A stretch of 32,000 bases of DNA, taken from Candidatus Saccharimonadota bacterium (GTDB lineage: Bacteria > Patescibacteriota > Gracilibacteria > UBA1369 > 2-02-FULL-48-14). The notes under the pieces are model-generated. The model had not been told where the DNA came from. It saw only the letters and a list, made by a program, of their open reading frames with translations, and did not search any database. Positions 3,958 through 28,451 of this stretch are shown here, piece after piece (the first letter of the stretch is position 1; each line of letters opens with the position of its first letter). The stretch is taken from contig CP064962.1 of the NCBI GenBank assembly GCA_016699145.1, positions 60,001-92,000 on the forward strand, read 5' to 3'. The position numbers were made by a program, and so were the translations under genes.

Positions 3958-4428
3958 ATGTCATCATTTTTTCAAAAACGGTGGGTCCAGGATACGCTTG
4001 TTTATGGAACCATCGGAATCGTCATCTTTCTCATTATTTTTGGCATAGTAAGAAGTTTTCAAAAGGTTACAAATCCGGTCACAGGTGCCGAAGTTCATTG
4101 GCATGCTCCGATTTCCTATGAAGCATGCGGAGAAACTTTGAATTTGAGCGATTCAGGAAGTCACAGCATCATCCATGGTCACGATGATGATCAAGTTCAC
4201 GTCGAAGGACTCGTTTTAAGTGAAGAAGACATCACCTTAGTTCAGTTCTTTAAAAATGCAGGTTTGAGTATTACGAGCGCAAACCTAGAAGAATATAAAA
4301 ACGGTGACATCTGTGAAAACACTGGCACCCCTGGCCAAGTGAGTTTTGAAGTGGATGGTAAAAGTTACACAGATCCAAGTCAAATCATCATTCAAGACAA
4401 GCAAAATATTCTCGTAAAATTTGAATAA
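3958..4428 (+). CDS. membrane-anchored His-rich extracytoplasmic protein
   Basis: 156 aa with a single N-terminal TM. It has HWHAPISYEACGE and HSIIHGHDDDQVHVEG motifs (HxH ... HxHDxxxxHxE). From memory this pattern recurs in DsbA-adjacent hypothetical proteins. I have not verified that. Confidence 0.5.
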   Translation: MSSFFQKRWVQDTLVYGTIGIVIFLIIFGIVRSFQKVTNPVTGAEVHWHAPISYEACGETLNLSDSGSHSIIHGHDDDQVHVEGLVLSEEDITLVQFFKNAGLSITSANLEEYKNGDICENTGTPGQVSFEVDGKSYTDPSQIIIQDKQNILVKFE

Positions 4429-4931
4429 TGAAAGGCCTACAAAAAATTCATGAAGAACCATTGCAGTGGCTGTATACCATAACTTTAGCAGCGATTATTT
4501 TTTATTCTTACTATCTAGTAATGAGGCTTTTACCAGGGGTTGGCAGCACTCCAGCCTGTCTCGTGGGAGGGTCACTCACTCTTCAAAATCTTATTTTTTC
4601 CGCCCTCCTCAGTTTTTTGACAGCTTTGATAATATCTGGATTATTTCGCCTCTATTTAAAAAGGAAATCCATGATCAAAAACGTAAAGACTGGGTCTGTA
4701 ATGGGATTTGGATTCTTGCTTGGTTTCTTCACAGTCTTTTGTACGCTTTGCACCATTCCAGTGATATCTGTTTTCGGCTTTGCCGTGGGTCTAGGATTTC
4801 TCACAACCTACAACCTAGCATTTAAAATACTCAGCCTAGTACTAATGTTCATGGCTTTAACATTACTCGACAAGCAGTTGAATTTTTGCGAAACGTGCGT
4901 ACTTGACGGTGATACACGCAATAGGGTATAG
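4428..4931 (+). CDS. polytopic membrane protein with P-A-C, CTLC and CETC motifs (paralog of 3526-3939)
   Basis: 167 aa. Its start shares 1 nt with the previous stop. Motifs are STPACLVGG, FTVFCTLCTIPV and a C-terminal CETC. The region around the CxxC aligns by eye with 3526-3939 (G..GF.G..C..C....FG...G..TY). Confidence 0.6.
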   Translation: MKGLQKIHEEPLQWLYTITLAAIIFYSYYLVMRLLPGVGSTPACLVGGSLTLQNLIFSALLSFLTALIISGLFRLYLKRKSMIKNVKTGSVMGFGFLLGFFTVFCTLCTIPVISVFGFAVGLGFLTTYNLAFKILSLVLMFMALTLLDKQLNFCETCVLDGDTRNRV

Positions 4932-4956
4932 GGGTATTGGCTATTAACCACTTCCT

Positions 4957-5229
4957 ATGATCAATCAAACTATTAAAAAAAGATCGATACATCGTGTAAA
5001 AATTCTCATGGGTCAATTTGAGGCCTTACTGAGGAGTATAGAAAGCGAAGAATATTGCACGGAACTCCTCCATCAGTCTCATTCCATACAAAGCTCTCTT
5101 AAAAGCCTGGACAAACTTCTGCTCGAAAATCATTTGAATTCGCACGTTAAACATCAAATGCAAGATAAAAAACAGCAAGAAAAAGCCATCAAAGAACTTA
5201 TAGAAATATATACTTCTTCACACCGTTAA
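4957..5229 (+). CDS. CsoR/RcnR/FrmR-family metal-sensing transcriptional repressor
   Basis: 90 aa. EEYCTELLHQSHSIQSSL...LLLENHLNSHVKHQ aligns by eye with E. coli RcnR (HECAAVLQQ...KGHLTEHIVHQ). The ligand fingerprint is x-C-H-H. Confidence 0.75.
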   Translation: MINQTIKKRSIHRVKILMGQFEALLRSIESEEYCTELLHQSHSIQSSLKSLDKLLLENHLNSHVKHQMQDKKQQEKAIKELIEIYTSSHR

Positions 5230-10038: not shown

Positions 10039-10105
10039 GTACCACAACGTCAAATAAAAATCCTGATGAGTTGGCTACAATTTCGGCACGATTGAGAATG
10101 AATCT

Positions 10106-10693
10106 CTAATCAAACTGAATAGTTCTTTCCTCCTGACGAGTACTGAAAAAACCGTTTTCATGTTTGACCAAGATGGACTTCGGTTTTGAGCCTAGGATTG
10201 GGTTCTCCTTGATGAGAAAAACAAAACAGTAAGCGGCGTCGCCTTGAGATGTGATGACTCTGGCTTTCAACTTGCCTTGTCGGATGAGCTTCCGCACAGT
10301 TTGATGTTTAATCTTGAAGTAGTGATCCAGTTCCCACATTGAGTACCACGAGTCTTTGTCCTGACAGATTTTCCCAGGCACTACCCGCTTCTCCACAGCA
10401 CGCTGGCAGACCAAGCACTTGATTCCATATTTATCGTACCAAGTCTCTTCGTCGCTCACATATTGACCGCAGATGAAACAAGTATATGGGCCACCATTGA
10501 TATGGAAGCCTTTAGGCTCATCTTTCAGCCTCAGTTTTCTAGCACGCTCTACCTGAGCCCCTTTGAGTAGAACTTCAAAAAGGCCTAAAAGCCTACTTCC
10601 AGACTCGTAAGCTTCAGCATGAGAAATTTCTTTTCCGTACTCCTTTTTATAAATTTCCTGAAATTCACGGACAGCTTCATCAGATAATTTCAT
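10106..10693 (-). CDS. zinc-ribbon plus excisionase/MerR-like HTH DNA-binding protein
   Basis: 195 aa. CFICGQ...(15 aa)...CLVCQ forms a CxxC...CxxC ribbon. It is followed by WYSMWELDHYFKIKHQTVRKLIRQGKLKARVI, which resembles HTH_17/excisionase-type helix-turn-helix domains. Confidence 0.55.
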   Translation of the reverse strand: MKLSDEAVREFQEIYKKEYGKEISHAEAYESGSRLLGLFEVLLKGAQVERARKLRLKDEPKGFHINGGPYTCFICGQYVSDEETWYDKYGIKCLVCQRAVEKRVVPGKICQDKDSWYSMWELDHYFKIKHQTVRKLIRQGKLKARVITSQGDAAYCFVFLIKENPILGSKPKSILVKHENGFFSTRQEERTIQFD

Positions 10694-10705
10694 AGAGGTT
10701 AAAAG

Positions 10706-10840
10706 TTAATGAAATAAATTTAGCCCTAAAACAGCACTAATAGTTTTTTCATAAGCCTCCTGACATTCTTTCTCGTCTTCGCAAAAAGTAACCGTCACAT
10801 TGAACCTGTCCTTGTCCTTGTTTTTGGTGTGTTTGGTCAT
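10706..10840 (-). CDS. possible 44-aa small ORF upstream of the Zn-ribbon/HTH gene
   Basis: Hand translation of the minus strand gives MTKHTKNKDKDRFNVTVTFCEDEKECQEAYEKTISAVLGLNLFH. The stop lies 12 nt before the ATG at 10693. It is below the ORF-track size cutoff, and there is no homology evidence. Confidence 0.25.
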   Translation of the reverse strand: MTKHTKNKDKDRFNVTVTFCEDEKECQEAYEKTISAVLGLNLFH

Positions 10841-10856
10841 AGGCGTGAACAAACCG

Positions 10857-10865
10857 TGGTATATT
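10857..10865 (+). promoter_or_regulatory. candidate TG-extended -10 promoter element
   Basis: TGGTATATT lies 22 nt upstream of the GTG at 10888, in the divergent intergenic region. No convincing -35 element. Confidence 0.25.
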
Positions 10866-10887
10866 TTAGCAGGATTACCATAAAAAC

Positions 10888-11469
10888 GTGACCAAAATCA
10901 AAATCAGCAAGGATGAACACATACGAATGGAAACATTCGTAGAAGTTATGAAAGAAGCTGCTGCCTCAAAATACAACGAAGAACATCGTCATATATCTAT
11001 GACCGAAGAGATATTGACTAATACGGTGATAAAAAGTGAGCTTCCTAACGAGGAATCGACGAGTCACATCTGTTCTAAAATTCGTCCCTTTCTCCTGACG
11101 GACGATCACTACTCAAAGATCATAAAAATCTTACGGGACCTTATTGGAATTGAACCCGATGCGCAGAAAGAAAAACATGAAAGCCAACTCTTAAAATCTG
11201 AAAAGATTTTGAAGGAAAATTACAAACATAAAGAACTAAACACGTTTACTTTGTATATGTATGGCAAATATGTGAAAGCAGATTCTGATAAAAGAGAAAT
11301 AATAAAACAAATGCCCCATATGCTTGAAGTTGGCTTCCATAAAAGTCTCGGCTTGGTGTTTAGAGCATTAGTAAATTTAGCCAATTTATATGAATTCCTA
11401 AAAAAAGAGCATTCATTTGAAGTCACAGAATCAGAGCCCAGAAAAACTACCCGCACCTTCGGTATATAA
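10888..11469 (+). CDS. hypothetical protein (first gene of the HEPN operon)
   Basis: 193-aa ORF with a GTG start (an alternative ATG is at 10927). It is Lys/Glu-rich and looks helical. I recognise no motif. Confidence 0.5.
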   Translation: MTKIKISKDEHIRMETFVEVMKEAAASKYNEEHRHISMTEEILTNTVIKSELPNEESTSHICSKIRPFLLTDDHYSKIIKILRDLIGIEPDAQKEKHESQLLKSEKILKENYKHKELNTFTLYMYGKYVKADSDKREIIKQMPHMLEVGFHKSLGLVFRALVNLANLYEFLKKEHSFEVTESEPRKTTRTFGI

Positions 11470-11479
11470 ACTATTTATT

Positions 11480-12091
11480 ATGAAAATAGGCTTAACGGAA
11501 GTCATTCAGATACAGGAAAGTATAAAAATCACAACTGAGATAAGCTCGATTATTTATTTAAATGAATTTCTGAAATACAAGGAGGCTTATGAAAGAGATG
11601 GTAGGAGTGAAATGTTGATTTTTACATTAATTTTCCTTCAAATTTATATTGAGTGTTTTCTCCATCAAAATATGAGGCAAATAATGGAAATGGAATTTGA
11701 GTTCAAAAATCCAGATTTATTTAAGCAATGGGATTCAAAGGAAGAAGAAATGTATGTAGGTAAAAAAGTAAGCTTTTTTACGAACTTCTTCTTCGCTAAG
11801 GGGGAAAACATAGAGTCGCTGGAACTTATCAAGGATTCTTTAAGAGAGATCGGGGGCATGAGGAATAAGATTGTACATGGATACAAATTAAGGAGAGTGG
11901 TTGTGAACGGAAAGACGGAAAAATCTGAAACTCTTTCTCTGTTGAGCGAAGAAAGTTTGAGGGAATATTTACATTCAGCCAATACACTTGGTAATGCTTG
12001 GAATACTCTGTTAGACGAGGTCGCTAAAAAATGTAGGGCCCTCAGGTCAGTAGGTGACTTCAAGTTGGCCCCGTTCAAAATTGATCAATAA
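11480..12091 (+). CDS. HEPN-domain-like protein with an R-x4-H motif (predicted RNase)
   Basis: I chose the ATG at 11480, 10 nt after the previous stop, rather than the overlapping track start at 11417. GGMRNKIVHG is encoded at nt 11852-11881, with Arg at 11861-11863 and His at 11876-11878. That gives the R-N-x3-H spacing typical of HEPN active sites. The motif sits in the C-terminal half of a helical-looking protein of about 203 aa. Confidence 0.55.
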   Translation: MKIGLTEVIQIQESIKITTEISSIIYLNEFLKYKEAYERDGRSEMLIFTLIFLQIYIECFLHQNMRQIMEMEFEFKNPDLFKQWDSKEEEMYVGKKVSFFTNFFFAKGENIESLELIKDSLREIGGMRNKIVHGYKLRRVVVNGKTEKSETLSLLSEESLREYLHSANTLGNAWNTLLDEVAKKCRALRSVGDFKLAPFKIDQ

Positions 12092-12098
12092 ATAGCCC

Positions 12099-12860
12099 AT
12101 GTCATATCCATCGCACTTAGATCAATTCCATATAGACCGTAATACAAAGGCTTTTTACAAATCGCAAAGTTTTCGGAAATTATTAAATTCCTTCGAGGAT
12201 TTCACGAAGAAAGAAGAATTCCAAGAGTTTATCTTGGGATTAAGAGAGAAATACAAAATTCCGCCAAATGGATTCTTAATTAAAGGTAGTACTTGGACTA
12301 CACCTCCAAAAGAATGGATAAGTGAAATGTGGAGTGTTGAACATAGAGAAGTTCAAACTGTTATAAAAGAATTCTGTGAAAACCAACAAATCCCCAATAA
12401 AGACTGGAAATTTGTGATCGAACAATACTTGTTTTTTAATAAGATATTCTTATCACAAGAGCCAAACTCTCATAACCTGTGTTATGTCACAGACATATCA
12501 ACAAGAAAAGATTCCTTAGGACAAGATTTGACGGAGGATTTAATCATCGCCTATCCAGTAGGGTTGTTGATTAGTCCATATGCCTCGAAGAGAGACATTT
12601 TGGATTACATCGAACGGATTTTTACCACTGAGATTAAGCCTCTACAAGAAAAGTATGAGAACGAAGATTCTTTTATAGGGAAAAGCCGCCAAAAAATGAC
12701 ATTAACAAAAAAAAGAGCCAACTTAGTTTGGGAAAATCAGGATAAGCCTCTAAAAGAAATTGCAGAACTCATTAAGACTGTATTGGGAACAGATATAGAT
12801 GTAGGCACAGTCGGAAAACTCCTCTCATTGGAAAGAAAAAAACGTAAGAAACAAGTGTAG
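12099..12860 (+). CDS. hypothetical protein (third gene of the HEPN operon)
   Basis: 253-aa ORF starting 7 nt after the HEPN gene. The C-terminal PLKEIAELIKTVLGTDIDVGTVGKLLSLERKKRKK may be an HTH with a basic tail. No recognisable catalytic motif. Confidence 0.5.
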   Translation: MSYPSHLDQFHIDRNTKAFYKSQSFRKLLNSFEDFTKKEEFQEFILGLREKYKIPPNGFLIKGSTWTTPPKEWISEMWSVEHREVQTVIKEFCENQQIPNKDWKFVIEQYLFFNKIFLSQEPNSHNLCYVTDISTRKDSLGQDLTEDLIIAYPVGLLISPYASKRDILDYIERIFTTEIKPLQEKYENEDSFIGKSRQKMTLTKKRANLVWENQDKPLKEIAELIKTVLGTDIDVGTVGKLLSLERKKRKKQV

Positions 12861-12874
12861 GTCACTTGTTTCTT
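12846..12874 (+). terminator. perfect 12-bp hairpin spanning the stop codon of 12099-12860
   Basis: AAGAAACAAGTG-taggt-CACTTGTTTCTT. No T-run follows it directly. Confidence 0.4.
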
Positions 12875-12884
12875 AGATCAGGAA

Positions 12885-12920
12885 TTAAGACAGATGTAGG
12901 TTCAAAATGTCTTAATTTTT
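12885..12920 (+). terminator. intrinsic terminator candidate
   Basis: TTAAGACA-(15 nt)-TGTCTTAA followed by TTTTT, immediately upstream of the ParB-methyltransferase start. Confidence 0.45.
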
Positions 12921-12923
12921 ACT

Positions 12924-14201
12924 ATGCAGAAAAAAATACCGTTAGAAATCGTTCACATAGACGTAGAGGCCCTCAACCCTGCCCCTTACAATCCCCGTAG
13001 ATGGGACAAAAAGGCAGAAGCAGATCTTACGGACAGTATAAAAAGATTTGGACTCATAGATCCAATACTCGTTAATTCCGCCACCGAGAGACGCAACATC
13101 GTGATCGGAGGTCATTTCAGACTGAAAATAGCCAAGGAATTGGGCTACAAAGAAGTGCCTGTGGTCTTTATTAAGATCACAGAGGAGGAAAGAGAGCGGG
13201 AACTCAACCTTCGACTCAATAGGAATCAAGGAGCCTGGGATATGGAGTTACTACGGAATTTCGATATCTCACTCTTATTGGATGTTGGATTTGATGATTC
13301 AGATCTCCAACACATATGGGACGACGTGATAGAAACGGAAGACGACAACTTTAATGTAGATGAGGAACTCAAGAATATTACGCCTTTCGTTCAGGATGGT
13401 GACCTCTGGGAGCTTGGAAGCCATAGATTGATTTGTGGAGACTCCACAAACAAAGAAACGTTAGACAAGCTTCTTGAAGGAAGAAAGGTGGGGTTCGTCA
13501 CAGCGGATCCTCCATACAATATCGGACTGGATTACAACAAAGGCATAGGGACCAAAGGAAAGTATGGCGGAACCAAAGTGGATGACGATAAAACAGATAC
13601 TCAATATGAAGAGTTTTTAGAAAACTGCCTAAGCAATGCGAAAGACCACACTCTTCTTGATGCCCACTTCTTTTGTTGGTCGGACGAAAGGTACATCGGC
13701 TTGATCCAAAGGGTTTATCAAAAACTAGAAATAGGAAACAAGAGAGTTTGCATCTGGCTGAAGAACAATCAAATGAGCACTCCACAGGTGGCTTTTCATA
13801 AAGTCTTTGAACCTTGTATCTACGGCATTCGAGGAGACCCATTCCTATCCCAGTACCACACAGCCTTCAACGAAGTGATGAACAAGGAGGTGGGTACAGG
13901 AAATAAACTCCATGGAGATGTTTTAGACATGATGAGTGTCTGGCTCGAAAAACGCCTCCCCTCAAACGCGTATGAACATCCAACGGCAAAACCACCGACT
14001 CTTTATGAAAAAGCTATTAGACGGTGCACAAAGCCAGGAGATTTTATCTTAGAACTCTTTGGCGGATCAGGCTCAACCCTCATCGCAGCAGAACAACTCA
14101 AACGCAGCTGCTTTCTAGTAGAGCTAGACCCCCTCTTTTGCTCATTAATCATCAAACGCTATGAAAAACTCACAGGACAAACCGCAAAAAAACTCAATTA
14201 A
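12924..14201 (+). CDS. ParB-like nuclease N-terminal domain fused to a beta-class N6-adenine (or N4-cytosine) DNA methyltransferase
   Basis: 425 aa. The ParB-N signature is ...NPRRWD...IVIGGHFRLKIAKELGY. GDLWELGSHRLICGDS follows, then motif IV TADPPYNIG, then the C-terminal motif I ELFGGSGSTLIAAE. The order IV then I indicates a beta-class enzyme. Confidence 0.85.
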   Translation: MQKKIPLEIVHIDVEALNPAPYNPRRWDKKAEADLTDSIKRFGLIDPILVNSATERRNIVIGGHFRLKIAKELGYKEVPVVFIKITEEERERELNLRLNRNQGAWDMELLRNFDISLLLDVGFDDSDLQHIWDDVIETEDDNFNVDEELKNITPFVQDGDLWELGSHRLICGDSTNKETLDKLLEGRKVGFVTADPPYNIGLDYNKGIGTKGKYGGTKVDDDKTDTQYEEFLENCLSNAKDHTLLDAHFFCWSDERYIGLIQRVYQKLEIGNKRVCIWLKNNQMSTPQVAFHKVFEPCIYGIRGDPFLSQYHTAFNEVMNKEVGTGNKLHGDVLDMMSVWLEKRLPSNAYEHPTAKPPTLYEKAIRRCTKPGDFILELFGGSGSTLIAAEQLKRSCFLVELDPLFCSLIIKRYEKLTGQTAKKLN

Positions 14202-14943
14202 AAAGGGTGATCTCTTCCAGCTCGGAGAACACACCTTGCTATGTGGTGACTCAACAAAAAAGTCAGATGTAGAGACTCTTCTCAAAGGAAAAACCGTAAG
14301 ACTCCTCCTTACAGACCCACCTTATGGTGTCGCCTATGTCGAAGGAAGAATGGAGAAGTCAAAGCAAGAGCATAAGGTGATACAAAATGACCATCTCCAA
14401 TCCGAAGAAGATTATTCCAATTTCTCAAGCCATTGGCTCGAGGCCATAAAGCCCTATTTGGAGGCTAAAAATTCTTACTACATTTTCAACAGTGACCGGA
14501 TGCTGTTTAGCCTCCGAGAAGGGATTAAAAGTCAGGGGTTCAAGATGTCACAGCTCCTTATTTGGGTGAAAACGGGAGCGGTGATCGGAAGATTGGACTA
14601 CAACCCACAGCATGAACTCATTGCCTATGGTTGGCTTGGAACTCATGAAGCATTAAAAGGAAGAGATAAGACAGTTTTAGTCGCACCAAAGCCGCTTAAG
14701 AATGATCTTCATCCAACGATGAAACCAGTCTCTTTGTTGCGACGGCTTGTTTTAAATAGCACCACGAGAGGAGACACCGTTTACGATCCCTTCTTAGGAA
14801 GTGGGTCAACGCTTATAGCCTGCGAGCAGACAAAAAGAAGATGTATCGGAATTGAGATCGAACCAGATTATTGCAAAGTCATTATCGATCGTTTTGAAAA
14901 AATGACAGGTTCGAAAGCGATAAAATTAGCCCCTCATCTATGA
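14161..14943 (+). CDS. beta-class DNA methyltransferase, paralog of the methyltransferase module of 12924-14201
   Basis: 260 aa. It has GDLFQLGEHTLLCGDS, motif IV LTDPPYGV and motif I DPFLGSGSTLIACE. It overlaps the upstream gene by 41 nt. Confidence 0.85.
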   Translation: MKNSQDKPQKNSIKKGDLFQLGEHTLLCGDSTKKSDVETLLKGKTVRLLLTDPPYGVAYVEGRMEKSKQEHKVIQNDHLQSEEDYSNFSSHWLEAIKPYLEAKNSYYIFNSDRMLFSLREGIKSQGFKMSQLLIWVKTGAVIGRLDYNPQHELIAYGWLGTHEALKGRDKTVLVAPKPLKNDLHPTMKPVSLLRRLVLNSTTRGDTVYDPFLGSGSTLIACEQTKRRCIGIEIEPDYCKVIIDRFEKMTGSKAIKLAPHL

Positions 14944-15392
14944 AAGATTCAATCACCTTAAAGACGGCAGAAAATAAGCAGACTCTTTTGGAGCATCTAA
15001 AGAAAACTCCAATTGTACAAGTTGCTTGTGAGAAAACTGGCATAGCCAGAGCCACTTATTACCGCTGGAGAAAAGAAGGTGAAAACTTCGCCGACGAGGC
15101 AGATGAAGCTTTATCTGCGGGAAAAAAGATCGTCAACGACATTGCCGAATCACAACTCATGAAGGCAGTGAGGGACGGGAACATGACTGGGATTATCTTC
15201 TGGCTCAAAAACAACCATCCAGATTACAAAACGAAAGTTGAGGTCTCAGGGAAATTAGAAAATCAGAACAAACTTTCTGCGGAGGAAGAAGCGCAGATAA
15301 AAGCTGCCCTCGGTCACGGAGGCTATTACAACTCTAAACACTATAAATATGACAAAAAATCACGTTCCAAAAAATCTCAAAACAATAATTAA
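14940..15392 (+). CDS. HTH protein, terminase small-subunit-like
   Basis: 150 aa. ATGA start/stop overlap with the methyltransferase gene. It has the HTH TGIARATYYRWRKEG and a GIIFWLKNNHPDYK motif that I recall from homeodomain-like TerS proteins. It lies immediately upstream of TerL. Confidence 0.6.
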   Translation: MKDSITLKTAENKQTLLEHLKKTPIVQVACEKTGIARATYYRWRKEGENFADEADEALSAGKKIVNDIAESQLMKAVRDGNMTGIIFWLKNNHPDYKTKVEVSGKLENQNKLSAEEEAQIKAALGHGGYYNSKHYKYDKKSRSKKSQNNN

Positions 15393-16878
15393 AGATAGGA
15401 AGCTACGAAGAGCTATGACGTTTGAAAGTCACTTCATGTTTTTCCATGTCTATTTCAGCCATTATATCGAACATGCCACGGCAGATTTTCAAAAAGAGAT
15501 GTTCGCACTGACAGAAGATCCAAAGGTGAAAAACATCGTCGTTGTAGCCTTTCGAGGATCGGGTAAGTCCACCATCATGAATACGAGCCTTCCCCTGTGG
15601 TCCATCTTAGGCAAACCCCAGTGCAAACACGTGATTATTGTGGGCCTGACCCAAGACCAAGCGAAGAGACATTTAAAGAATATAAAGCAGGAACTTGAGA
15701 GCAACGAATTGCTAAGAAAAGACTTGGGACCCTTCAAAGAGATTGAAAACGAATGGAGTGCGTACACATTAGAAATTCCAAATTTAGGAGCAAGGATCAC
15801 TGCCGTTTCGGTAGATCAAAGTATCCGAGGCATTCGACATGGGGCGTATAGACCAGACCTCATCATATGCGATGACGTAGAAGATCTAAGTTCCACAAAA
15901 ACCTTAGAAAGCAGAGACAAGGTGGATGAAGTGATTACCAGTGAAATCATCCCATCTGGTACCCCAAAGACACGACTTGTGGTGATTGGGAACCTTCTAC
16001 ATGAAGACTCGTTCATCATGCGTTTAAGGAAACGAATCGTGAATAAGGATTTCAATGGCGAGTTTCGTGCTTATCCCTTACTTGATGAGGCTAATAAATG
16101 TCTATGGCCTGGGAAATTTCCAAACCAAGAAAGCATTCAAGATGAAAAGACGCGAAGCGGAAAAGAGTCCTCATGGCAGCGGGAATACATGCTTAACATT
16201 GTGACAAGTACGGATCGGATCATCTTCCCAGAGTGGATTCATACTTATCCAGAACTTCCTGAGAAAAGCGGTAGAAAAAGTAAATTCAGAAAACTTTATA
16301 CTTCAGTAGATTTGGCTATTTCTCAGCACGACAGGGCAGACTGCACGGCAATGGTGACGGCACAGGTGCATGGCTATGGCGAAGAAATGATCATTTACGT
16401 TCTACCGAATCCAATCAATTTAAGATTAACGTTTGAAGAAACAATCAACACTGCTAAAGGCCTTCACGACAACCATAAATCCACGCTGATAGTTGAAGAC
16501 GTAGCCTATCAAAAAGCAGCAATAGAGACTTTGAAAGGAAGAGGGTGCATCGTTGAAGGCGTTACTCCAAAAGGAGATAAAAGCTCCCGCCTCACTTTGG
16601 TTTCCTATCTCTTTGAAAGAGGGCAAATACTATTTCCTGAGCAAGGTTGCGAGCGTTTAATTCAACAGTTACTCAATTTTGGATTAGAGAGACATGATGA
16701 TTTAGTGGATGCACTAACGATGCTTATTTCATTTGTATCTCAGGAACAAGAAAAATCAAATTTACTGTTTGGATTCTGGAATATGGATGGCTCATCTAAA
16801 CTTGTATATCGAGATCATGTGGAATACACAGATGATTATGGTGGCACCAGAGAGGTCTGGTACGATGAGAAAGCTTAA
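15349..16878 (+). CDS. phage terminase large subunit (ATPase plus RNase H-like nuclease)
   Basis: 509 aa. Walker A is AFRGSGKST and Walker B-like is DLIICDDVED. Acidic residues of the C-terminal nuclease domain are present (SVDLAIS, LIVEDVAYQ, HDDLVDAL). Confidence 0.8.
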   Translation: MTKNHVPKNLKTIIKDRKLRRAMTFESHFMFFHVYFSHYIEHATADFQKEMFALTEDPKVKNIVVVAFRGSGKSTIMNTSLPLWSILGKPQCKHVIIVGLTQDQAKRHLKNIKQELESNELLRKDLGPFKEIENEWSAYTLEIPNLGARITAVSVDQSIRGIRHGAYRPDLIICDDVEDLSSTKTLESRDKVDEVITSEIIPSGTPKTRLVVIGNLLHEDSFIMRLRKRIVNKDFNGEFRAYPLLDEANKCLWPGKFPNQESIQDEKTRSGKESSWQREYMLNIVTSTDRIIFPEWIHTYPELPEKSGRKSKFRKLYTSVDLAISQHDRADCTAMVTAQVHGYGEEMIIYVLPNPINLRLTFEETINTAKGLHDNHKSTLIVEDVAYQKAAIETLKGRGCIVEGVTPKGDKSSRLTLVSYLFERGQILFPEQGCERLIQQLLNFGLERHDDLVDALTMLISFVSQEQEKSNLLFGFWNMDGSSKLVYRDHVEYTDDYGGTREVWYDEKA

Positions 16879-16909
16879 AAAAGCGGGCTGGGTATCCAGC
16901 CCGCTTTTA
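16877..16909. terminator. bidirectional intrinsic terminator between convergent TerL and SLH genes
   Basis: AAAAA-AGCGGGCTGG-gtat-CCAGCCCGCT-TTTT. This is a GC-rich 10-bp stem flanked by an A-run and a T-run. Confidence 0.8.
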
Positions 16910-16919
16910 AGGTAGAGAC

Positions 16920-18515
16920 TTAGTCTATCGTGATTTCCCAGTCCCCATCGGCATCCACATTCATAATGTAATCTCCTGCATCTAGATATTCGGCGGTGTC
17001 TCCGTCAAAATCACCAATCTCATTGGCAAGGTAAGCTACGGTATCCCCATCAGAATCTAAGAGATGAACAATGAAGTTGCTATCTCCAGAGTGGCTCAAA
17101 TTGAATGTTTTAAGGCCAGCAGTCGAAATATGGAAGACTTGAGTGGCAGCATTCCCTTCTCCGCTGAATTCTGAAGTGGAGGTGCTGTCATTGAAGTCGA
17201 CTTGGTCCCAATCAAATGTCCATTCTCCATCCGCTTCAACATGAAGGACATAAGTACGCTCATCCACATATTCTGCTACAGAGCCTTCTGTCTCCCCGAT
17301 CTCATTGGTAAGATAGCTAACGGTCTCGCCACTTTCATCAAGCAAATGAACGATGAAATTGGAATTTCCGTCGTGAGTGAAATTAAAAACGGAAAGACCT
17401 TCTTCTATCTTAATAAAGTCGGTGACGGTTGACCCCTCACCACTGAACTCTTTGGTATATTCGGCATTTGAAGTGTCTCGCGGCTGTTCAATTTTGACTG
17501 TCCATGAACCGTCATCTCCATCAACTTCCAAAACATATTCCCCAGCTTCTTCTATAGAGACGGCAGTCACACCTTCGTAATCGCCAATCTCATTTGAGAG
17601 ATACTCTGTTGTATCTTCAGTAGTAGAAAGGAGATGAACGATAAAATTGCTATCTCCATTATAAGTGAGAGTGACAACAGCCAGGCCTTCTTCGAGGTCA
17701 AAAGATCCAGTTACCTCAGAGTCAGAACCAGAGAAAGTGATATCTTCAATAGAAATGACTGGCTCTTGAACAACAGGTTCCTCAGGTGTGTCAGTTTCTT
17801 CTGGGGCTGTTTCTTCAGTCTCAATCAAAGAAGTGAGGCCTTTCACTGTCAGGAAGTTAGTTTGAGCAGCTTCGCTAAATTCACTTACAGCCATTTCTTG
17901 TACCACCAAGGTACGATAAATGTTTTCTGCCACTCCGCTACGATCCATCTCTCCTGAAGGACTGAAGTTTCCACTGGTCGTTTCAAGTAGGTTTAAGTCC
18001 TTTGCAACATAGACGTAAGGAGCGTACCAAGCGGAGCTGTCGGTGTCGCTAAATAGGGTCGAAGAAACAGTAGTGGGAAGCATGGAACTTAAGCCCAAAG
18101 CATTCACCAGCATTTTGATGGCTTCTACTTTATTCACCGTACTAGAAGGTGCAAAGTTTCCGTCAGGATAGCCATCCACCCACCCTTCTTCATGGGCATA
18201 GCAAACGTACTTTGCGTACCAATCAGTGGTGACATCTGGGAAACAGTTCTTGTAGATGTTTGCATCTGGTTCTATTCCTTGTCCTGAGACCAAAACCTTC
18301 ATAAGTTCCGCTCTATTTATAGTTTGATTTGGCTTAAAGCTGCCGTCTGAATAGCCTTCTAAAGTCCCAATGCTGACGAGGTATTCGATGGCAACGTAAT
18401 TGGTGTTGCTGGAAGCGACATCCTCAAAACTAGAGGCTGATGTGTTAGGGATAAAAAGAGCCGTCATAAGAACGGCTAGGAAGCCTTTCTTAAGATATTT
18501 ATAGACCTGTGCCAT
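16920..18515 (-). CDS. secreted S-layer-homology (SLH) domain surface protein with three C-terminal repeats of about 82 aa
   Basis: I prefer the ATG at 18515 (MAQVYKYLKKGFLAVLMTALFIPNTSASS signal peptide) over the track GTG at 18566. There are three SLH modules: FEDV...YVAIEYL, FPDV...WYAKYV and FSDT...WYAPYV. An acidic linker and three repeats follow. Confidence 0.85.
   Translation of the reverse strand: MAQVYKYLKKGFLAVLMTALFIPNTSASSFEDVASSNTNYVAIEYLVSIGTLEGYSDGSFKPNQTINRAELMKVLVSGQGIEPDANIYKNCFPDVTTDWYAKYVCYAHEEGWVDGYPDGNFAPSSTVNKVEAIKMLVNALGLSSMLPTTVSSTLFSDTDSSAWYAPYVYVAKDLNLLETTSGNFSPSGEMDRSGVAENIYRTLVVQEMAVSEFSEAAQTNFLTVKGLTSLIETEETAPEETDTPEEPVVQEPVISIEDITFSGSDSEVTGSFDLEEGLAVVTLTYNGDSNFIVHLLSTTEDTTEYLSNEIGDYEGVTAVSIEEAGEYVLEVDGDDGSWTVKIEQPRDTSNAEYTKEFSGEGSTVTDFIKIEEGLSVFNFTHDGNSNFIVHLLDESGETVSYLTNEIGETEGSVAEYVDERTYVLHVEADGEWTFDWDQVDFNDSTSTSEFSGEGNAATQVFHISTAGLKTFNLSHSGDSNFIVHLLDSDGDTVAYLANEIGDFDGDTAEYLDAGDYIMNVDADGDWEITID
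16923..17735 (-). repeat. three tandem protein-level repeats (about 82 aa each) in the SLH protein
   Basis: Each unit contains FSGxxS...(G/K)L.V(F/T).(L/F)(T/S)(Y/H).G(D/N)SNFIVHLL...YL(S/T/A)NEIG(D/E)...(V/M).(V/A)(D/E)(A/G)DG.W. The units cover aa 278-360, 374-455 and 467-548 of the track ORF. They are diverged at the nucleotide level. Confidence 0.75.
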
Positions 18516-18531
18516 AGGATTTGGGGTTAGG

Positions 18532-18558
18532 AAACAAAAAAGGGCACCTAGGTCGCCC
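18532..18558 (-). terminator. intrinsic terminator-like hairpin plus U-run just upstream of the SLH start codon
   Basis: The minus strand reads GGGCG-ACCUAGG-UGCCC followed by UUUUUUGUUUC. The element's downstream edge (18532) lies 16 nt upstream of the ATG at 18515. Confidence 0.5.
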
Positions 18559-18571
18559 AACAACACTTGCT

Positions 18572-18648
18572 CCGCGAGGAGTAGCCGATATTGGCTAGGT
18601 ACCCGTCATTGCCCAATATCTGGGTTTGACGAGCAACAAGCCTCGCGG
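18572..18648 (-). promoter_or_regulatory. structured leader element with nested inverted repeats
   Basis: The outer 8-bp pairing is CCGCGAGG (18572-18579) with CCTCGCGG (18641-18648). It encloses GATATTGG / CCAATATC, which can fold as two short hairpins (AGCC-gatatt-GGCT and CCCA-atatc-TGGG) or as one long helix. Confidence 0.35.
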
Positions 18649-18740
18649 TAGGAGCTGAAAAAATGTGTTGTAGAGCGACAGGAGAAGTGTAGCAGGTACA
18701 ACTAAAAAAGAAAGTCAATATTAATCTGTTAAAGATAACT

Positions 18741-19913
18741 CTAAGAGTTAAGCTCAATGATGTTTTTTGCCCTTTGGTAGAGTTGATCAAATGTGATGAT
18801 CTCAGGTGAGGACAGGTTTTTCCTAAAATGCTCGAAACAAGATAATTTATCTGGATTTAAAACCTTCCCACCTGCATCTAAGAAGTCCTTCTCAGTTGTG
18901 CCTATAATGAGAAAGGATTTTGGCTTAAATTGAAAAACTTGCTGTCCAATAAGATTGCCATCTTTATCTTTCAGATCAACGATCTCACCTAAATGATTTT
19001 CAGATATTCTCACATACTGGTGACACTGTGACACTGCGCCGATAAGTTCAGAACTTGGTGCCCATACTCTGCTAGTCCTATACATCTTCTCTTCCAAAAG
19101 AGGAGTTTTATGAGTCTTAATTTCAACAATATTTAGAAAATTAATAAGTCCCAATGTTTTCAATATCCCATCGGGTCTCTTTCCAGGATCATTAAAATCT
19201 GCACCTCTTAGCACCTGCTCAAATTTGCCTTTTTCTATCGGAGCATTAAAGACATATTCTAAACCATAGCCAAATATCCACTTATTTTCTTCGAAAAAAT
19301 GCTGCCAAACATCTTCATCTTTTGATTTTCCCCACTCAGTTTTCTTTGCCTCAAAGAAAACATCATCTGTAAGAAGCCCTTTAAAAGTATCAAGCGCAGA
19401 CCGTTTATGGGCAATGTTGGTAACATCCCCTTCTTGGACAGAGCTGTTTGTGGCAAGTTCAGCTAAAATCCTTTGCCCCTTAGTGTCCGCTAGTATTGTC
19501 TTAAGGTGCATCTTGAGCGCCGCCTCATCCTGTATGATGCTTGCATCAAGAATGAGAGATTTATCTGCGATTGATTTTAAATCGAGTCCACTGAAAATTT
19601 GAAGTAGAGCTAAAATATTTTCGAAACCCATCGTAGAAAAGTTCATTTTCTCAACAGTCTTCCCAGTAGCTTTAGTCAACTGGACCCCTGTAATTTTCTC
19701 GTCATTAAAAATATAAGTCAGACGAAGCTCGACCCTTTTGGAGACTTGAAGCTTTACATCGTAGGGATCAGTTCCTTCATCAAATACAACACTTATATAC
19801 TTGCCACCTCCACCAGGAAAATCTGAAGCATAAATACGGCCTTCCTTTCGATTTTGAAGGATGGAAGCAATCTCAAATGCGGCAACCTCTGCTTGACTGG
19901 GTAGAGTAATCAT
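18741..19913 (-). CDS. Shedu-like (DUF4263-type) PD-(D/E)xK nuclease defence protein
   Basis: 390 aa. The C-terminal region is WQHFFEENKWIFGYGLEY...GKRPDGILKT...LNIVEIKTHKTPLL...ELIGAVSQCHQY. That gives D...E-x-K and then a Q..xY motif, as I recall for the SduA DUF4263 domain. The N-terminal half is unrecognisable, which is typical of the variable Shedu N-domains. Confidence 0.55.
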   Translation of the reverse strand: MITLPSQAEVAAFEIASILQNRKEGRIYASDFPGGGGKYISVVFDEGTDPYDVKLQVSKRVELRLTYIFNDEKITGVQLTKATGKTVEKMNFSTMGFENILALLQIFSGLDLKSIADKSLILDASIIQDEAALKMHLKTILADTKGQRILAELATNSSVQEGDVTNIAHKRSALDTFKGLLTDDVFFEAKKTEWGKSKDEDVWQHFFEENKWIFGYGLEYVFNAPIEKGKFEQVLRGADFNDPGKRPDGILKTLGLINFLNIVEIKTHKTPLLEEKMYRTSRVWAPSSELIGAVSQCHQYVRISENHLGEIVDLKDKDGNLIGQQVFQFKPKSFLIIGTTEKDFLDAGGKVLNPDKLSCFEHFRKNLSSPEIITFDQLYQRAKNIIELNS

Positions 19914-20020
19914 ATTTTTTAGGCAATCATATGTGTAGCAGATTTATGCTTAAACCACTAGCTCTAGCTATCACGATCCATTGTGTCATCTATGTGGGCA
20001 GACCTTAACCCATATAAGAT

Positions 20021-21286
20021 ATGACAGACAACTTGGTAGATCTAAAATACTGTCTTTACGCCCGTAAATCCTCGGAGTCAGATGAAAGACAGGCCTTGTC
20101 GATCGATTCACAAATTACTGAGATGGAGACCTTAGCTAGAAGAGAAAACATTAAAATTGTCGACATTAAAAGAGAAAGTAAGTCAGCTAAAGGATCTGGA
20201 GAACGTCGAGCTTTTAACGAGTTGATCAAGGGGCTTGAGATGCAGGAATTCAATGCAATACTAACCTGGCAGCCAGATCGATTAAGTAGAAATGCGGGTG
20301 ACCTCGGTTCTTTGGTAGATTTAATGGACCGTGGCTTTCTAAGACAAATCAGAACTTTTGGGCAGACTTTCACGAATAACCCCAACGAAAAGTTCTTACT
20401 GATGATCCTCTGTAGCCAGGCAAAACTAGAAAATGATAATCGTGGAATCAATGTAAAAAGAGGCCTTAGAGCAAAGTGTGAGCGTGGAACAAGACCTGGT
20501 GGGGTTCCAATAGGCTATAAACTAATCCGAAGTACGAACTTCAGGGAATCAAGTAAAATCATCGTAGACGAAGAGAGGGCTCCTTTTGTGAAAAAGATGT
20601 TTCAATACGTGATTAAAAATGACTTTAGCGGAAGACAAGTGAATGAATTTCTATCAGATGAAGGATTTCGAACAAGCAGTGGGAAAACGATGGCCTTAAG
20701 CGCAACCTATCGAGTCTTTAAAGAGGCATTTTATTATGGTGAGTTTGAATTTCCGAGAGGCAGTGGGAATTGGTACAAAGGTTCTCATACTCCACTCATC
20801 ACAAAGGAAGACTTCGTTGAAGCAAACAAAAGACTGCAAACGACTCCCAAAGGTAAATGGGGAAGGAAAGAATTTTATTTCAGTAAACTGTTCAAATGTG
20901 GAACTTGCGGATCTGGAATAACTGGCGAAGAAAGGGTCAATCGTTTCGGTAAACATTACACTTACTACAAATGCAATAAATATGGCGGTAGAGGAAGATG
21001 CAGAGAAAAATACATTCGTGAAGAAAACCTGATCGAATCCATTGCAAAACTTGTTGATCAACTCCGCGCAGATCACTTTCGGCTTAGCTCCAGAGTTGAA
21101 AGAGAGGTAGAGAAGCTCAATGATTTAAGGAAAATTTCCGGCGATGCTATGACCAATCCATTAACAACACAAGACTACATCGCTTATATCCTTAAAAATG
21201 GCACAGCTGAGGAAAAAAGAGATCTGTTAAGGTGCGTAAATGGAAAGCTTTTTCTAATAAAAGGTGACATCCAGCACAATTACTAG
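20021..21286 (+). CDS. large serine recombinase (integrase)
   Basis: 421 aa. The resolvase catalytic domain starts YARKSSESDERQALSIDSQ, which contains the nucleophile Ser region. LTWQPDRLSRN, a recombinase domain and the zinc ribbon CGTCGS...YYKC follow, then a C-terminal coiled coil. Confidence 0.9.
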   Translation: MTDNLVDLKYCLYARKSSESDERQALSIDSQITEMETLARRENIKIVDIKRESKSAKGSGERRAFNELIKGLEMQEFNAILTWQPDRLSRNAGDLGSLVDLMDRGFLRQIRTFGQTFTNNPNEKFLLMILCSQAKLENDNRGINVKRGLRAKCERGTRPGGVPIGYKLIRSTNFRESSKIIVDEERAPFVKKMFQYVIKNDFSGRQVNEFLSDEGFRTSSGKTMALSATYRVFKEAFYYGEFEFPRGSGNWYKGSHTPLITKEDFVEANKRLQTTPKGKWGRKEFYFSKLFKCGTCGSGITGEERVNRFGKHYTYYKCNKYGGRGRCREKYIREENLIESIAKLVDQLRADHFRLSSRVEREVEKLNDLRKISGDAMTNPLTTQDYIAYILKNGTAEEKRDLLRCVNGKLFLIKGDIQHNY

Positions 21287-22998: not shown

Positions 22999-23073
22999 TG
23001 GCTGGGGCGGTAGGATTCGAACCCACGAATGGCGGGACCAAAACCCGCTGCCTTACCACTTGGCGACGCCCCA
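22999..23073 (-). tRNA. tRNA-Gln (anticodon UUG), with encoded CCA
   Basis: Hand-folded cloverleaf. Acceptor stem is UGGGGCG/CGCCCCA. The D arm is GCC-AAGUGGUAA-GGC. The anticodon stem is GCGGG/CCCGC with loop UUUUGGU, giving anticodon UUG. The T arm is GUGGG-UUCGAAU-CCUAC. The discriminator is G, followed by CCA. Confidence 0.9.
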
Positions 23074-27065: not shown

Positions 27066-28451
27066 ATGGCTTCTCACATCGGAATCATGGGTCTAGGCAC
27101 CATGGGCACTGCCTTGGCACGCAATATCGCCTCGCGCGGTTATAAAGTGAGCGTATGGAATCGCTCTCACGAAAAAGTCACCGATTTCATTTCAAAATAC
27201 GGGGATCAATCTTTTTATGGAGCCGAACACATCGAAGATTTCGTGGAAAGTTTGGAAAAACCTCGAAAAATCATCATGCTGGTGCCTGCTGGTGCGCCCA
27301 CCGAAGAAGCTCTTCAAAACGTGACTCGGGCCTTGGAAGAAGGCGACTGTTTGATGGATGGAGGCAATGCGCACTTCAAAGACACGGAGCGTTTCCAGGC
27401 CCAGTTGAAGGAGCAAGGCATTATTTTTTTGGGTTGTGGTGTGTCAGGCGGAGAGCAGGGAGCACTCTACGGTCCTAGCCTCATGCCCGGAGGGGAGCGA
27501 GAAGCCTATGGGCATTTTGAAGAAATCCTTTCTAAAATCGCCGCAGAAGATTTCAGTGGCAAAGCATGCGTGGCCTACATGGGCAAGGGAGGAGCCGGTC
27601 ATTATGTTAAAATGGTGCACAACGGAATTGAATATGCCGAAATGCAAATGCTTGCGGAGGCCTATGATTTGCTGACACGCATTTACAAATTGCCTCAGGA
27701 AGAATTGATCGACATTTTTCAAAGCTGGGACCGTGGCCCCTTGGATTCTTTTTTAACCGGGATCACGGTTGAAGTTTTAGAGAAAAAAGAAGGAGAGAAA
27801 CCTTTGCTGAATTTGATTTTAGACAAGGCGGGGCAAAAGGGAACGGGTCGCTGGACCAGCGAAGAAAGTTTGGCTTTAGGTGCGCCAACACCCGCCCTCA
27901 CCGAGGCTGTTTTCGCCCGCAGTTTGTCCGCTTTAAAAGAGCTGCGACTCGAATTGGCTGAAAAAATTGTAAGCACCGACTTAGCGCCCTCCCTTTTGCT
28001 TTCAGATTTTGTAAACGACTTGGAAAAAGCTTTGCTTTTGAGTCGCACTTTGAATTTTGTTCAAGGCTTGGAACTGCTGCGACTTGCAAATCAAGAATAC
28101 GACTATGAATTGAATTTTCCAGAAATCATTCGCGTGTGGCAAGGGGGATGCATCATTCGTTGTGAGCGGCTCAAAGACATGCACGAAGCCTTGCTCCAAA
28201 ATGAATCTCTTTTGCAATCGACTTGGTTCCAAAAAACCATGCAAGAAAATTTACAAAATTTAAGGCGAATCGTCTCCACCGCTGCCGCTCGTGGCATTCC
28301 ACTTTTCGTGCTCGGAGCCAATCTGACTTATGCAGAAGCTTTGCGCAGCGCGGTGCTTCCGGCTCGTCTCATTCAAGGGCTTCGAGATCGCTTCGGTGCG
28401 CACGGCTTTGAACGTGTCGATCAGCCCGGTCACTTTCACGCTCAATGGTAA
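27066..28451 (+). CDS. gnd: 6-phosphogluconate dehydrogenase (decarboxylating)
   Basis: 461 aa. It has the N-terminal Rossmann motif GIMGLGTMGTALARNIA, plus GGNAHF, GCGVSGGEQGALYGPSLMPGG and KMVHNGIEYAEMQ. Confidence 0.9.
   Translation: MASHIGIMGLGTMGTALARNIASRGYKVSVWNRSHEKVTDFISKYGDQSFYGAEHIEDFVESLEKPRKIIMLVPAGAPTEEALQNVTRALEEGDCLMDGGNAHFKDTERFQAQLKEQGIIFLGCGVSGGEQGALYGPSLMPGGEREAYGHFEEILSKIAAEDFSGKACVAYMGKGGAGHYVKMVHNGIEYAEMQMLAEAYDLLTRIYKLPQEELIDIFQSWDRGPLDSFLTGITVEVLEKKEGEKPLLNLILDKAGQKGTGRWTSEESLALGAPTPALTEAVFARSLSALKELRLELAEKIVSTDLAPSLLLSDFVNDLEKALLLSRTLNFVQGLELLRLANQEYDYELNFPEIIRVWQGGCIIRCERLKDMHEALLQNESLLQSTWFQKTMQENLQNLRRIVSTAAARGIPLFVLGANLTYAEALRSAVLPARLIQGLRDRFGAHGFERVDQPGHFHAQW

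Follow-up and report, generated by a model that had tools for sequence, protein, structure and literature searches.

The 32,000-nucleotide (nt) window analysed here, the whole stretch at positions 60,001 to 92,000 of contig CP064962.1, contains a compact run of three genes, here called A, B and C, that an earlier note had proposed to be a new abortive-infection or toxin module built around a HEPN-like protein. Coordinates are those of the whole window, and designations such as L002 and L014 refer to the loci compared. All three genes lie on the plus strand. Gene A (10888..11469) starts with a GTG that lines up with an ATG in L002 and encodes a protein of 193 amino acids (aa), a lineage-specific ORFan of unknown function. 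Gene B (11480..12091) starts with ATG and encodes a 203-aa stand-alone HEPN-superfamily protein, a predicted RNase; gene callers put its start at a TTG at 11417, giving 224 aa, and the homologues start at the ATG. Gene C (12099..12860) encodes 253 aa, with a novel N-terminal domain, a weakly helix-turn-helix (HTH)-like three-helix C-terminal region and a basic tail. The gaps between the genes are 10 nt (A-B) and 7 nt (B-C), and the G+C content of the unit is 35.2%, compared to 43.4% for the window; the 60-nt lines starting at 11521 and 12361 contain only 13/60 and 19/60 G+C. The three co-oriented open reading frames (ORFs), their spacing and these low spot counts are all exactly as previously described. 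The best reading of the locus, developed below, is that B represents a new family within the known class of solo HEPN RNases linked to restriction-modification (R-M) or other defence systems.

The argument for B starts from a single short motif. The peptide GGMRNKIVHG is encoded at 11852-11881, just where the earlier note had placed it, and its core, R128-N-K-I-V-H133 (11861..11878, plus strand; R128 codon at 11861, H133 codon at 11876-11878), is the predicted HEPN catalytic motif in both the family alignment and an AlphaFold model. This is the sole R-x4-6-H in proteins A, B and C. A single R-x4-H easily arises by chance. The family of B is rare: 16 close relatives were found among 5.8 billion proteins searched, and an exhaustive profile search of 1.84 billion yielded 73 representative clusters. 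Across an alignment of 46 full-length members, mean identity is 23% and no column is invariant apart from R128 and H133 (46/46 each), arguing that RNKIVH is not a chance occurrence. Residue 129 is N in 44 of the 46 members and D in the other two, G134 is present in 45/46, and K96 and L53 are at least 90% conserved. Position 58, whose codon lies at 11651..11653 (plus strand), is E in 45/46 and D in the remaining member. Furthermore, B is under purifying selection, with a ratio of nonsynonymous to synonymous substitution rates (dN/dS) of 0.33 relative to L002.

The defining motif of HEPN domains is R-x4-6-H, in which a polar residue (N, D or H) follows the R; the motif lies at the end of helix 3, inserts can occur between helices 2 and 3, and helix 2 typically carries a conserved acidic residue (PMC3710099). 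The B family has the R-x4-H throughout, with the polar N (D in 2/46) following the R. The AlphaFold model of B (pLDDT 82.5, pTM 0.79) is all-alpha except for one beta-hairpin, with long helices at residues 11-40 and 43-73, short helices at 78-88 and 93-102, and a helix at 112-133 that terminates in RNKIVH and is followed by a loop, the beta-hairpin and a helix at 157-184. In the secondary structure of the model, the motif is found at the end of a long helix, extra helices are inserted between helices 2 and 3, and the second long helix (43-73) bears the conserved acidic residue E58. The segment IFLQIYIECFL had been considered as a membrane helix on the basis of what turned out to be a spurious match to a designed transmembrane protein. 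That idea was rejected, as the segment bears a conserved E and Q and is modelled with pLDDT >90 as the second long helix.

Profile searches with individual B-family members point in the same direction. The Pfam families with the most members matched belong to the HEPN clan: HEPN_RiboL-PSP, which matches 6 members (best E = 4.5e-5, 15.8 bits vs the gathering score of 28.4), HEPN_Apea, which weakly matches 4-6 members (best E = 0.0039), HepT-like and HEPN_Swt1. MAE_28990 and LA2681, of the same clan, match one member each, and all of these matches are below the gathering scores. When the B model was compared to the PDB with Foldseek, there was no significant structural match; 5yep_C (rank 1, E = 1.9) and 7bxo_F (rank 7), neither significant, are both HepT toxins. 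An hhalign comparison of the B family with one DUF4145 protein aligned the motif at a nonsignificant 0.8% probability, and scans of PHROGs and NCBIfam gave nothing above threshold for A, B or C. The earlier HEPN reading of the middle protein is thereby supported in its essentials, by residue conservation, by the position of the motif in the model and by weak matches to six HEPN-clan families; of the searches that the note had proposed, the secondary-structure layout of the model fits that of HEPN domains and the Pfam and Foldseek matches are all sub-threshold or not significant. Taking the alignment and the model together, B is very probably a divergent, unclassified HEPN-family protein.

The genomic contexts of B relatives provide a second line of evidence. 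In five loci (L018, L019, L024, L038 and L040) B lies inside a type III R-M operon, in the order Mod (N6_N4_Mtase), B, Res (ResIII plus an endonuclease domain), PIF1-type helicase and DUF2779. In L026 it lies within a type I R-M operon (HsdM ... HsdS - B) with 4-nt overlaps, and the same arrangement is found in L035. B is followed by a PD-(D/E)XK nuclease in L014, and is found beside DUF2779 and a zinc-ribbon protein of about 360 aa in L004, L005 and L022. In other loci, GmrSD, type I HsdR, a type ISP R-M enzyme or PycTM is encoded within a few kb of B. Finally, in about 8 distinct elements B is found within a few kb of a cassette encoding a ParB-methylase, TerS and TerL, and the TerL proteins there are 38-50% identical to that of the window. 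B occurs with neither A nor C in at least 15 other contexts. As judged by this distribution, B moves independently of A and C.

The zinc-ribbon protein just mentioned, which carries several CxxC motifs, is encoded at 8618-9709 in L004, 6900-7982 in L005, 10613-11698 in L022 and, on the minus strand, 6118-7209 in L011. It adjoins B on either the 5' or the 3' side and also occurs near C in a locus that has no B; the copies are 33-45% identical. Searches of PDB sequences with this protein gave nothing meaningful, and it has no known relatives.

The genome loci of B come from metagenome-assembled genomes (MAGs) of Peribacteria, Saccharibacteria, Gracilibacteria, Kazan and Paceibacteria, and, as sampled, the family appears to be specific to the candidate phyla radiation (CPR), or Patescibacteria; the window too is from a CPR bacterium. 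In 50,697 phage genomes tblastn gave no match to any of A, B and C. One locus, L023 (JALOBP010000002.1), is labelled as a Methanoregula sp. MAG. Its gene order is that of the Saccharibacteria locus L004/L017, with proteins 78-92% identical. Rather than placing B in an archaeon, L023 is probably a CPR contig that was mis-binned.

We therefore lean, with reasonable though far from complete confidence, toward the view that B is a stand-alone HEPN RNase of a previously unnamed family, carried as mobile defence-type cargo rather than serving as the hub of a three-gene system. In the proposed mechanism, B would dimerise as other HEPN domains do, and the R128-N-x3-H133 motifs, brought together with E58, would form an RNase site that needs no metal. 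The protein would be kept inactive by, or alongside, a DNA-targeting defence, and would be released by phage infection or by failure of that neighbouring defence. Released B would then cleave cellular or phage RNA, and the predicted toxicity would take the form of growth arrest. The role of B would, by analogy, be that of a second-line or abortive-infection defence, like that of PrrC within EcoprrI.

Several observations weigh against this view. The best HEPN Pfam score of B itself (HepT-like) is 16.2 bits vs a cut-off of 23.5 and covers residues 118-135 only, and profile searches of PDB sequences with B gave nothing. A scan against PADLOC-DB v2, one of the tools that the earlier note had named for checking its proposal, returned no model matching A, B or C at E values up to 1. 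In the window itself B is outside any R-M operon and has no restriction enzyme next to it, and five B loci (L016, L020, L021, L028 and L039) have no recognised defence neighbour.

Upstream of A lies a TG-extended -10-like element, TGgTATATT (10857..10865, plus strand), 23 nt 5' of the start codon and with a predicted promoter role. The element is present where the earlier note had reported it, and the sequence TGnTATATTTTAGCA is kept both in L002, 5' of A, and in L014, directly 5' of B. A generic two-hexamer promoter scan did not include TGgTATATT at 10857-10865 among its listings. On the other side of this region is a divergent unit on the minus strand, headed by a conserved small ORF of 44 aa (MTKHTKNKDKDRFNVTVTF..., 10706..10840) and continuing with a 195-aa gene with CxxC pairs (10106..10693); the start codons of the two divergent units are about 47 nt apart, an arrangement that resembles a regulatory switch region. 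The region of the 44-aa ORF is about 84% conserved in DNA across the window, L002 and L014, and copies of the 195-aa gene that are 89-90% identical lie beside A-B in L002 and directly beside B in L014. Pfam and PDB-sequence searches with the 195-aa protein found no match. Read by eye, the 44-aa protein may be ribbon-helix-helix-like and the C-terminus of the 195-aa protein HTH_17-like.

Gene C has a quite different set of associations. Its 23 homologues share an invariant P..ISPYAS.RD block, and its N-terminal domain of 190 aa is without known relatives. The AlphaFold model (pLDDT 82.7) gave no significant match by Foldseek against the PDB or BFVD, nor did C in PDB-sequence searches. The HTH that the earlier note had suspected near the C-terminus receives some weak support, in that the last three helices of the model resemble small HTH domains, and no significant fold match backs it. 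In loci L008 to L013, C lies directly 5' of the ParB-methylase/(methylase)/TerS/TerL cassette and both A and B are absent. In L029, a C homologue of 36% identity is found without B in another serine-recombinase island, which also carries Shedu and an Mrr-like nuclease. Comparison of the C family by hhalign with the proteins that take the place of C in L014 and L004 revealed no relationship.

Two hairpins after C, both noted previously, are real, and both recur after C homologues in five other elements. Hairpin 1 (12846..12874, plus strand) has a 13-bp stem with no T-run on the plus strand; it contains the palindrome AAGTG-N5-CACTT (core 12853-12867) and overlaps the stop codon of C. Every locus with C, in 6 distinct elements and at C identities as low as 36%, has the palindrome exactly once; it is absent in all 16 C-lacking loci scanned, and the flanking stem positions change symmetrically between elements. 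Hairpin 2 (12885..12920, plus strand) is terminator-like, with an 8-bp AT-rich stem followed by TTTTT, and ends 3 nt before the ATG of the ParB-methylase gene. Its hairpin-plus-T-run architecture is kept, with variable sequence, in L002, L003, L008, L011 and L029, and nine pairs show compensatory changes. All six distinct elements have the same order: the palindrome at or just past the C stop, N3-TCTTA, the variable hairpin with its T-run, and the ATG of the next gene (window 12846-12923; L002 5213-5301; L003 1550-1638; L008 9742-9830; L011 9766-9860; L029 3836-3923). In the C-carrying loci the T-run ends within about 12 nt of that ATG, and there is therefore no room for a promoter after the terminator. 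This suggests that the element exerts read-through or antitermination control, or acts as an operator/promoter for the downstream cassette. A search of Rfam gave no match on the island, the cis element included.

Because the palindrome and terminator track C across six elements, C has its own cis element and its own partners. On the evidence of its associations, C is a core gene of a serine-recombinase/ParB-methylase/TerS/TerL element, and not a partner of B. The C-terminus of C is probably DNA-binding and, by analogy with phage regulators encoded at this position (see below), the more likely role of C is to regulate the cassette that follows it. In L002, an insertion sequence (4138-5193; DDE_3 transposase, HTH domains) sits between C and the ParB-methylase gene, and the insertion leaves the palindrome on the methylase side.

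The element in question is an island of about 11 kb (10039-21286) that begins immediately after a host PEMT-family gene and carries B in a variable cargo slot at its left end. Downstream of C is the phage-type cassette (12924..16878, plus strand), which Pfam and PHROGs identify as a ParB_N-N6_N4 methylase, a second methylase, TerS and TerL, with matches to phrog_498, phrog_309 (TerS) and phrog_38 (TerL, E = 1.8e-75); in distant loci with B or C, TerL is 38-50% identical. Directly 3' of TerL, on the opposite strand, is a gene for an SLH-domain protein of about 540 aa (16920-18566); this protein is about 75% identical in L003, L008 and L009, which are Peregrinibacteria-type elements. Next come a Shedu nuclease (SduA_C; 18741..19913, minus strand; Pfam PF14082, E = 1.9e-26) and a large serine recombinase (20021..21286, plus strand) with Resolvase, Recombinase and Zn_ribbon_recom domains and a match to the phrog_95 integrase, which is the probable integrase of the element. 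The neighbours listed in the earlier note, namely a Shedu-like nuclease, orphan methyltransferases and a recombinase, are thus recovered as SduA_C, two N6_N4 methylases and a large serine recombinase. The possibility that the two methylases and B constitute an R-M-like unit in the window was rejected, since they have no restriction enzyme as a neighbour and the methylases are always found in the company of TerS/TerL.

Islands of this general kind, 10-20 kb long and combining a serine recombinase, the cassette and variable cargo (Shedu, type III R-M or an Mrr-like nuclease), appear to form a family in CPR genomes. In L019, L024, L031 and L046, a recombinase homologue of 48-50% identity is found together with B and/or the cassette, and the L031 element has the same design, cassette plus recombinase, without B. 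No portal or capsid genes were seen in the available sequence of the cassette-recombinase islands, and two cassette-bearing contigs with B are filed as viral in IMG/VR. The CPR islands could be satellite-like elements or recurrent prophage remnants. Two unrelated loci (L005 14218-15622 and L011 2405-3859) have genes of diversity-generating retroelements, for an RVT_1 reverse transcriptase and bAvd, no more than a few kb from methylase/TerS/TerL. Beyond the island in the window, a tRNA-Gln gene (anticodon TTG; 22999-23073, minus strand) is located about 1.7 kb past the recombinase gene, and a glucose-6-phosphate dehydrogenase (G6PD) gene is split into overlapping ORFs of 340 aa (28445-29467) and 157 aa (29434-29907). 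The 157-aa ORF corresponds to the C-terminal third of G6PD as seen in solved structures (E = 1e-13), and the split is a frameshift, reflecting either a pseudogene or an assembly error.

The nature of the island raises the question of whether B serves the mobile element rather than the host, for example by cutting the transcripts of a helper phage or competitor so as to bias packaging or exclude rivals. Such a role would fit the recurrence of B near the cassette in about 8 distinct elements, as well as the filing of two such contigs in IMG/VR. Several of these elements also carry a serine recombinase of 48-50% identity, and capsid genes were seen in none of them in the available sequence; furthermore, PLE-type satellites use a large serine recombinase (PMC6002521). 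However, B also occurs in R-M operons of the chromosome, of type I as well as type III, whose flanks contain no cassette (L018, L026 and L035), and the role presumes that the island is excised and packaged. An element-serving role, which can in any case coexist with one in host defence, is on balance rather unlikely as the explanation of B. A broader proposal combines several of these threads. The island would be a member of a so far undescribed family of integrative elements in CPR bacteria that resemble phage satellites and are built, without capsid genes, from a large serine recombinase and a packaging cassette; C would switch the cassette by way of the palindrome and terminator, the HEPN RNase B would be interchangeable anti-phage cargo, and A would be a newly evolved inhibitor of B. 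This composite is put forward tentatively, and something like a one-in-five prospect describes it fairly.

The last element of that proposal depends on A, for which only 3 homologues were found among 5.8 billion proteins, all of them at least 85% identical. Protein A is identical to IPG41_00410 of 'Candidatus Peregrinibacteria bacterium', and has no match in Pfam, PADLOC, PHROGs, NCBIfam, the PDB or phage genomes. Its dN/dS of 0.115 vs L002 argues that A is a real coding gene, and by its distribution it is a lineage-specific ORFan; that it acts as a lineage-specific modulator of B is doubtful. In a specific version of the latter idea, A and B would constitute a lineage-specific toxin-antitoxin pair, in which A is a newly recruited antitoxin or inhibitor of the HEPN toxin and C is unrelated. 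The gene order fits, with A directly 5' of B across the 10-nt gap, antitoxin first being the usual order in type II toxin-antitoxin systems. The strong purifying selection on A is also consistent with a pair, as is the finding that A and B, unlike C, are similarly identical to their L002 counterparts, and part of the published record describes HEPN toxins as often needing a neutralising partner, e.g. RnlA-RnlB and HepT-MntA. Nonetheless, every locus below 85% identity has B without A: A is absent from L003 (B 63% identical), from L014 (B 45% identical) and from every more distant B locus. In L003, B comes 21 nt after the stop codon of the host PEMT gene and is itself followed by C and the cassette; both A and the divergent 195-aa gene are missing. 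In L014 the conserved promoter region and the divergent gene (89% identical) directly abut B, which is followed by the PD-(D/E)XK nuclease. Moreover, A has no recognisable antitoxin domain or nucleotidyltransferase motif, and the dS values of A and B differ about three-fold (see below). A dedicated A-B pair is accordingly improbable.

Less probable still is the original proposal that A, B and C make up a dedicated three-component abortive-infection or toxin-antitoxin system around the HEPN protein. The tight gaps, the shared strand, the conserved promoter-like element 5' and the hairpins after C all invite this interpretation, and the trio does recur in L001, L002 and L032, with the B-C pair also present in L003. 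Co-transcription is in fact plausible, because a conserved extended -10 precedes the genes (before A here, before B in L014) and a terminator follows C, and A-B-C are probably co-transcribed in this genome from that promoter. Co-transcription does not equal one functional system, however. The earlier note had itself held that its idea would fail if the trio never co-occurred elsewhere, and that is essentially what was found: the complete trio is confined to three or four elements (window/L001, L002 and L032), where B is at least 85% identical, and neither its membership nor its order is conserved across divergent genomes. A is gone at the B identities of 63% and 45%. L008, L011 and L029 have C, each time accompanied by its palindrome, and no B. 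In the R-M operons of types I and III, B is present and C is not, and B is found with neither A nor C in the many contexts described above. Furthermore, comparison with L002 gives a dS of 0.61 in A and 0.22 in B, with saturation in C, and these unequal values indicate a mosaic origin. The three-component proposal is thus already largely refuted by the phylogenetic spread of its parts, and A-B-C is, as far as comparative sequence can tell, a lineage-specific juxtaposition of three independent pieces. The novelty claimed for the locus is reduced accordingly, because the supposed new architecture dissolves.

Last in probability comes the suggestion that B is a non-catalytic helical protein, e.g. 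a regulator or scaffold, with a superficial likeness to HEPN domains: no HEPN model scores above its curated threshold, there is no significant structural match and all-alpha bundles are prone to over-interpretation, but R128 and H133 are the sole invariant residues of a family at 23% mean identity, the R is followed by a polar N as in catalytic HEPN domains, the R-x4-6-H motif is typically lost in non-catalytic ones, and the R-M-embedded contexts match those of catalytic HEPN clades (PMC3710099).

If B is a stand-alone HEPN RNase of a new family, it is of interest for several reasons. The genomes of CPR/Patescibacteria are tiny, and the anti-phage systems that they encode are poorly charted. 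The B family is absent from Pfam, NCBIfam, PHROGs and PADLOC and is missed by current defence-finding pipelines, even though it is repeatedly found inside type I and type III R-M operons, in a position akin to that of PrrC within EcoprrI. A solo HEPN protein of 203 aa with two invariant residues is a compact and easily tested candidate for a second-line RNase, and the recombinase/TerS/TerL elements may spread such defence genes among CPR bacteria.

With respect to known systems, the closest parallels for C are the RinA/ArpU/Ltr activators of phage late genes, which are encoded just 5' of terS. Like them, C lies directly 5' of a packaging cassette and has a weakly HTH-like C-terminus, followed here by a conserved cis element and terminator. 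Unlike RinA/ArpU, C has the 190-aa N-terminal domain without known relatives, the genes downstream of C in L029 are not packaging genes, and no NCBIfam or Pfam match places C in the RinA/ArpU group.

For B, the HepT toxins of the HepT-MntA (HEPN-MNT) type II/VII toxin-antitoxin systems provide one point of comparison, as the motif region is the part of B that aligns with the HepT-like Pfam model and the best Foldseek matches (5yep_C and 7bxo_F, not significant) are HepT structures. B differs from HepT in being larger, with an extra N-terminal helical hairpin and a beta-hairpin. The MntA-type partner is also lacking: no NTP-transferase domain was found in A, C or the annotated neighbours, in the window or in the loci of relatives, in agreement with the earlier remark that A and C contain no minimal nucleotidyltransferase. 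ApeA, which is attributed to work by Gao and colleagues from 2020, is reportedly a single-gene HEPN defence system. B resembles it as a solo HEPN protein without a dedicated partner, and the family shows weak HEPN_Apea matches. ApeA proteins are much larger than 203 aa, however, and B is far smaller, its HEPN_Apea matches are not significant and no PADLOC model matched it. In some lineages, R-M operons also contain genes of the ApeA family (PMC3710099).

The best Pfam similarity of the B family is to RiboL-PSP-HEPN (6 members, E = 4.5e-5), a family that has been noted 'in operon with ParB' and is distantly related to AbiD/AbiF (PMC3710099), and B is often near the ParB_N-methylase. The matches are sub-threshold and confined to the C-terminal half, and unlike RiboL-PSP-HEPN proteins B has no endoRNase L-PSP fusion; with regard to the AbiD/AbiF (Abi2) group, the PADLOC scan of B gave no Abi match.

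The most instructive comparison is with the HEPN RNases embedded in R-M systems, an established pattern that involves at least 16 clades (Anantharaman et al. 2013, PMC3710099). The expected logic of these systems is that of a second-line RNase restrained by a DNA-targeting system, with PrrC in EcoprrI as the paradigm (PMC3710099). Unlike PrrC and RloC, B is a protein of 203 aa without an N-terminal ABC-ATPase; in contrast to PrrC in EcoprrI, the B gene of the window is not in an R-M operon, its neighbours being an ORFan, C and orphan phage-type methylases; and none of the sequence models of the R-M-linked HEPN families matches it. Like those RNases, B has the R-x4-H with a polar residue after the R, and its relatives sit in R-M operons, flanked by HsdS and a probable HsdR-like gene or by Mod and Res, in frames that overlap or nearly abut.

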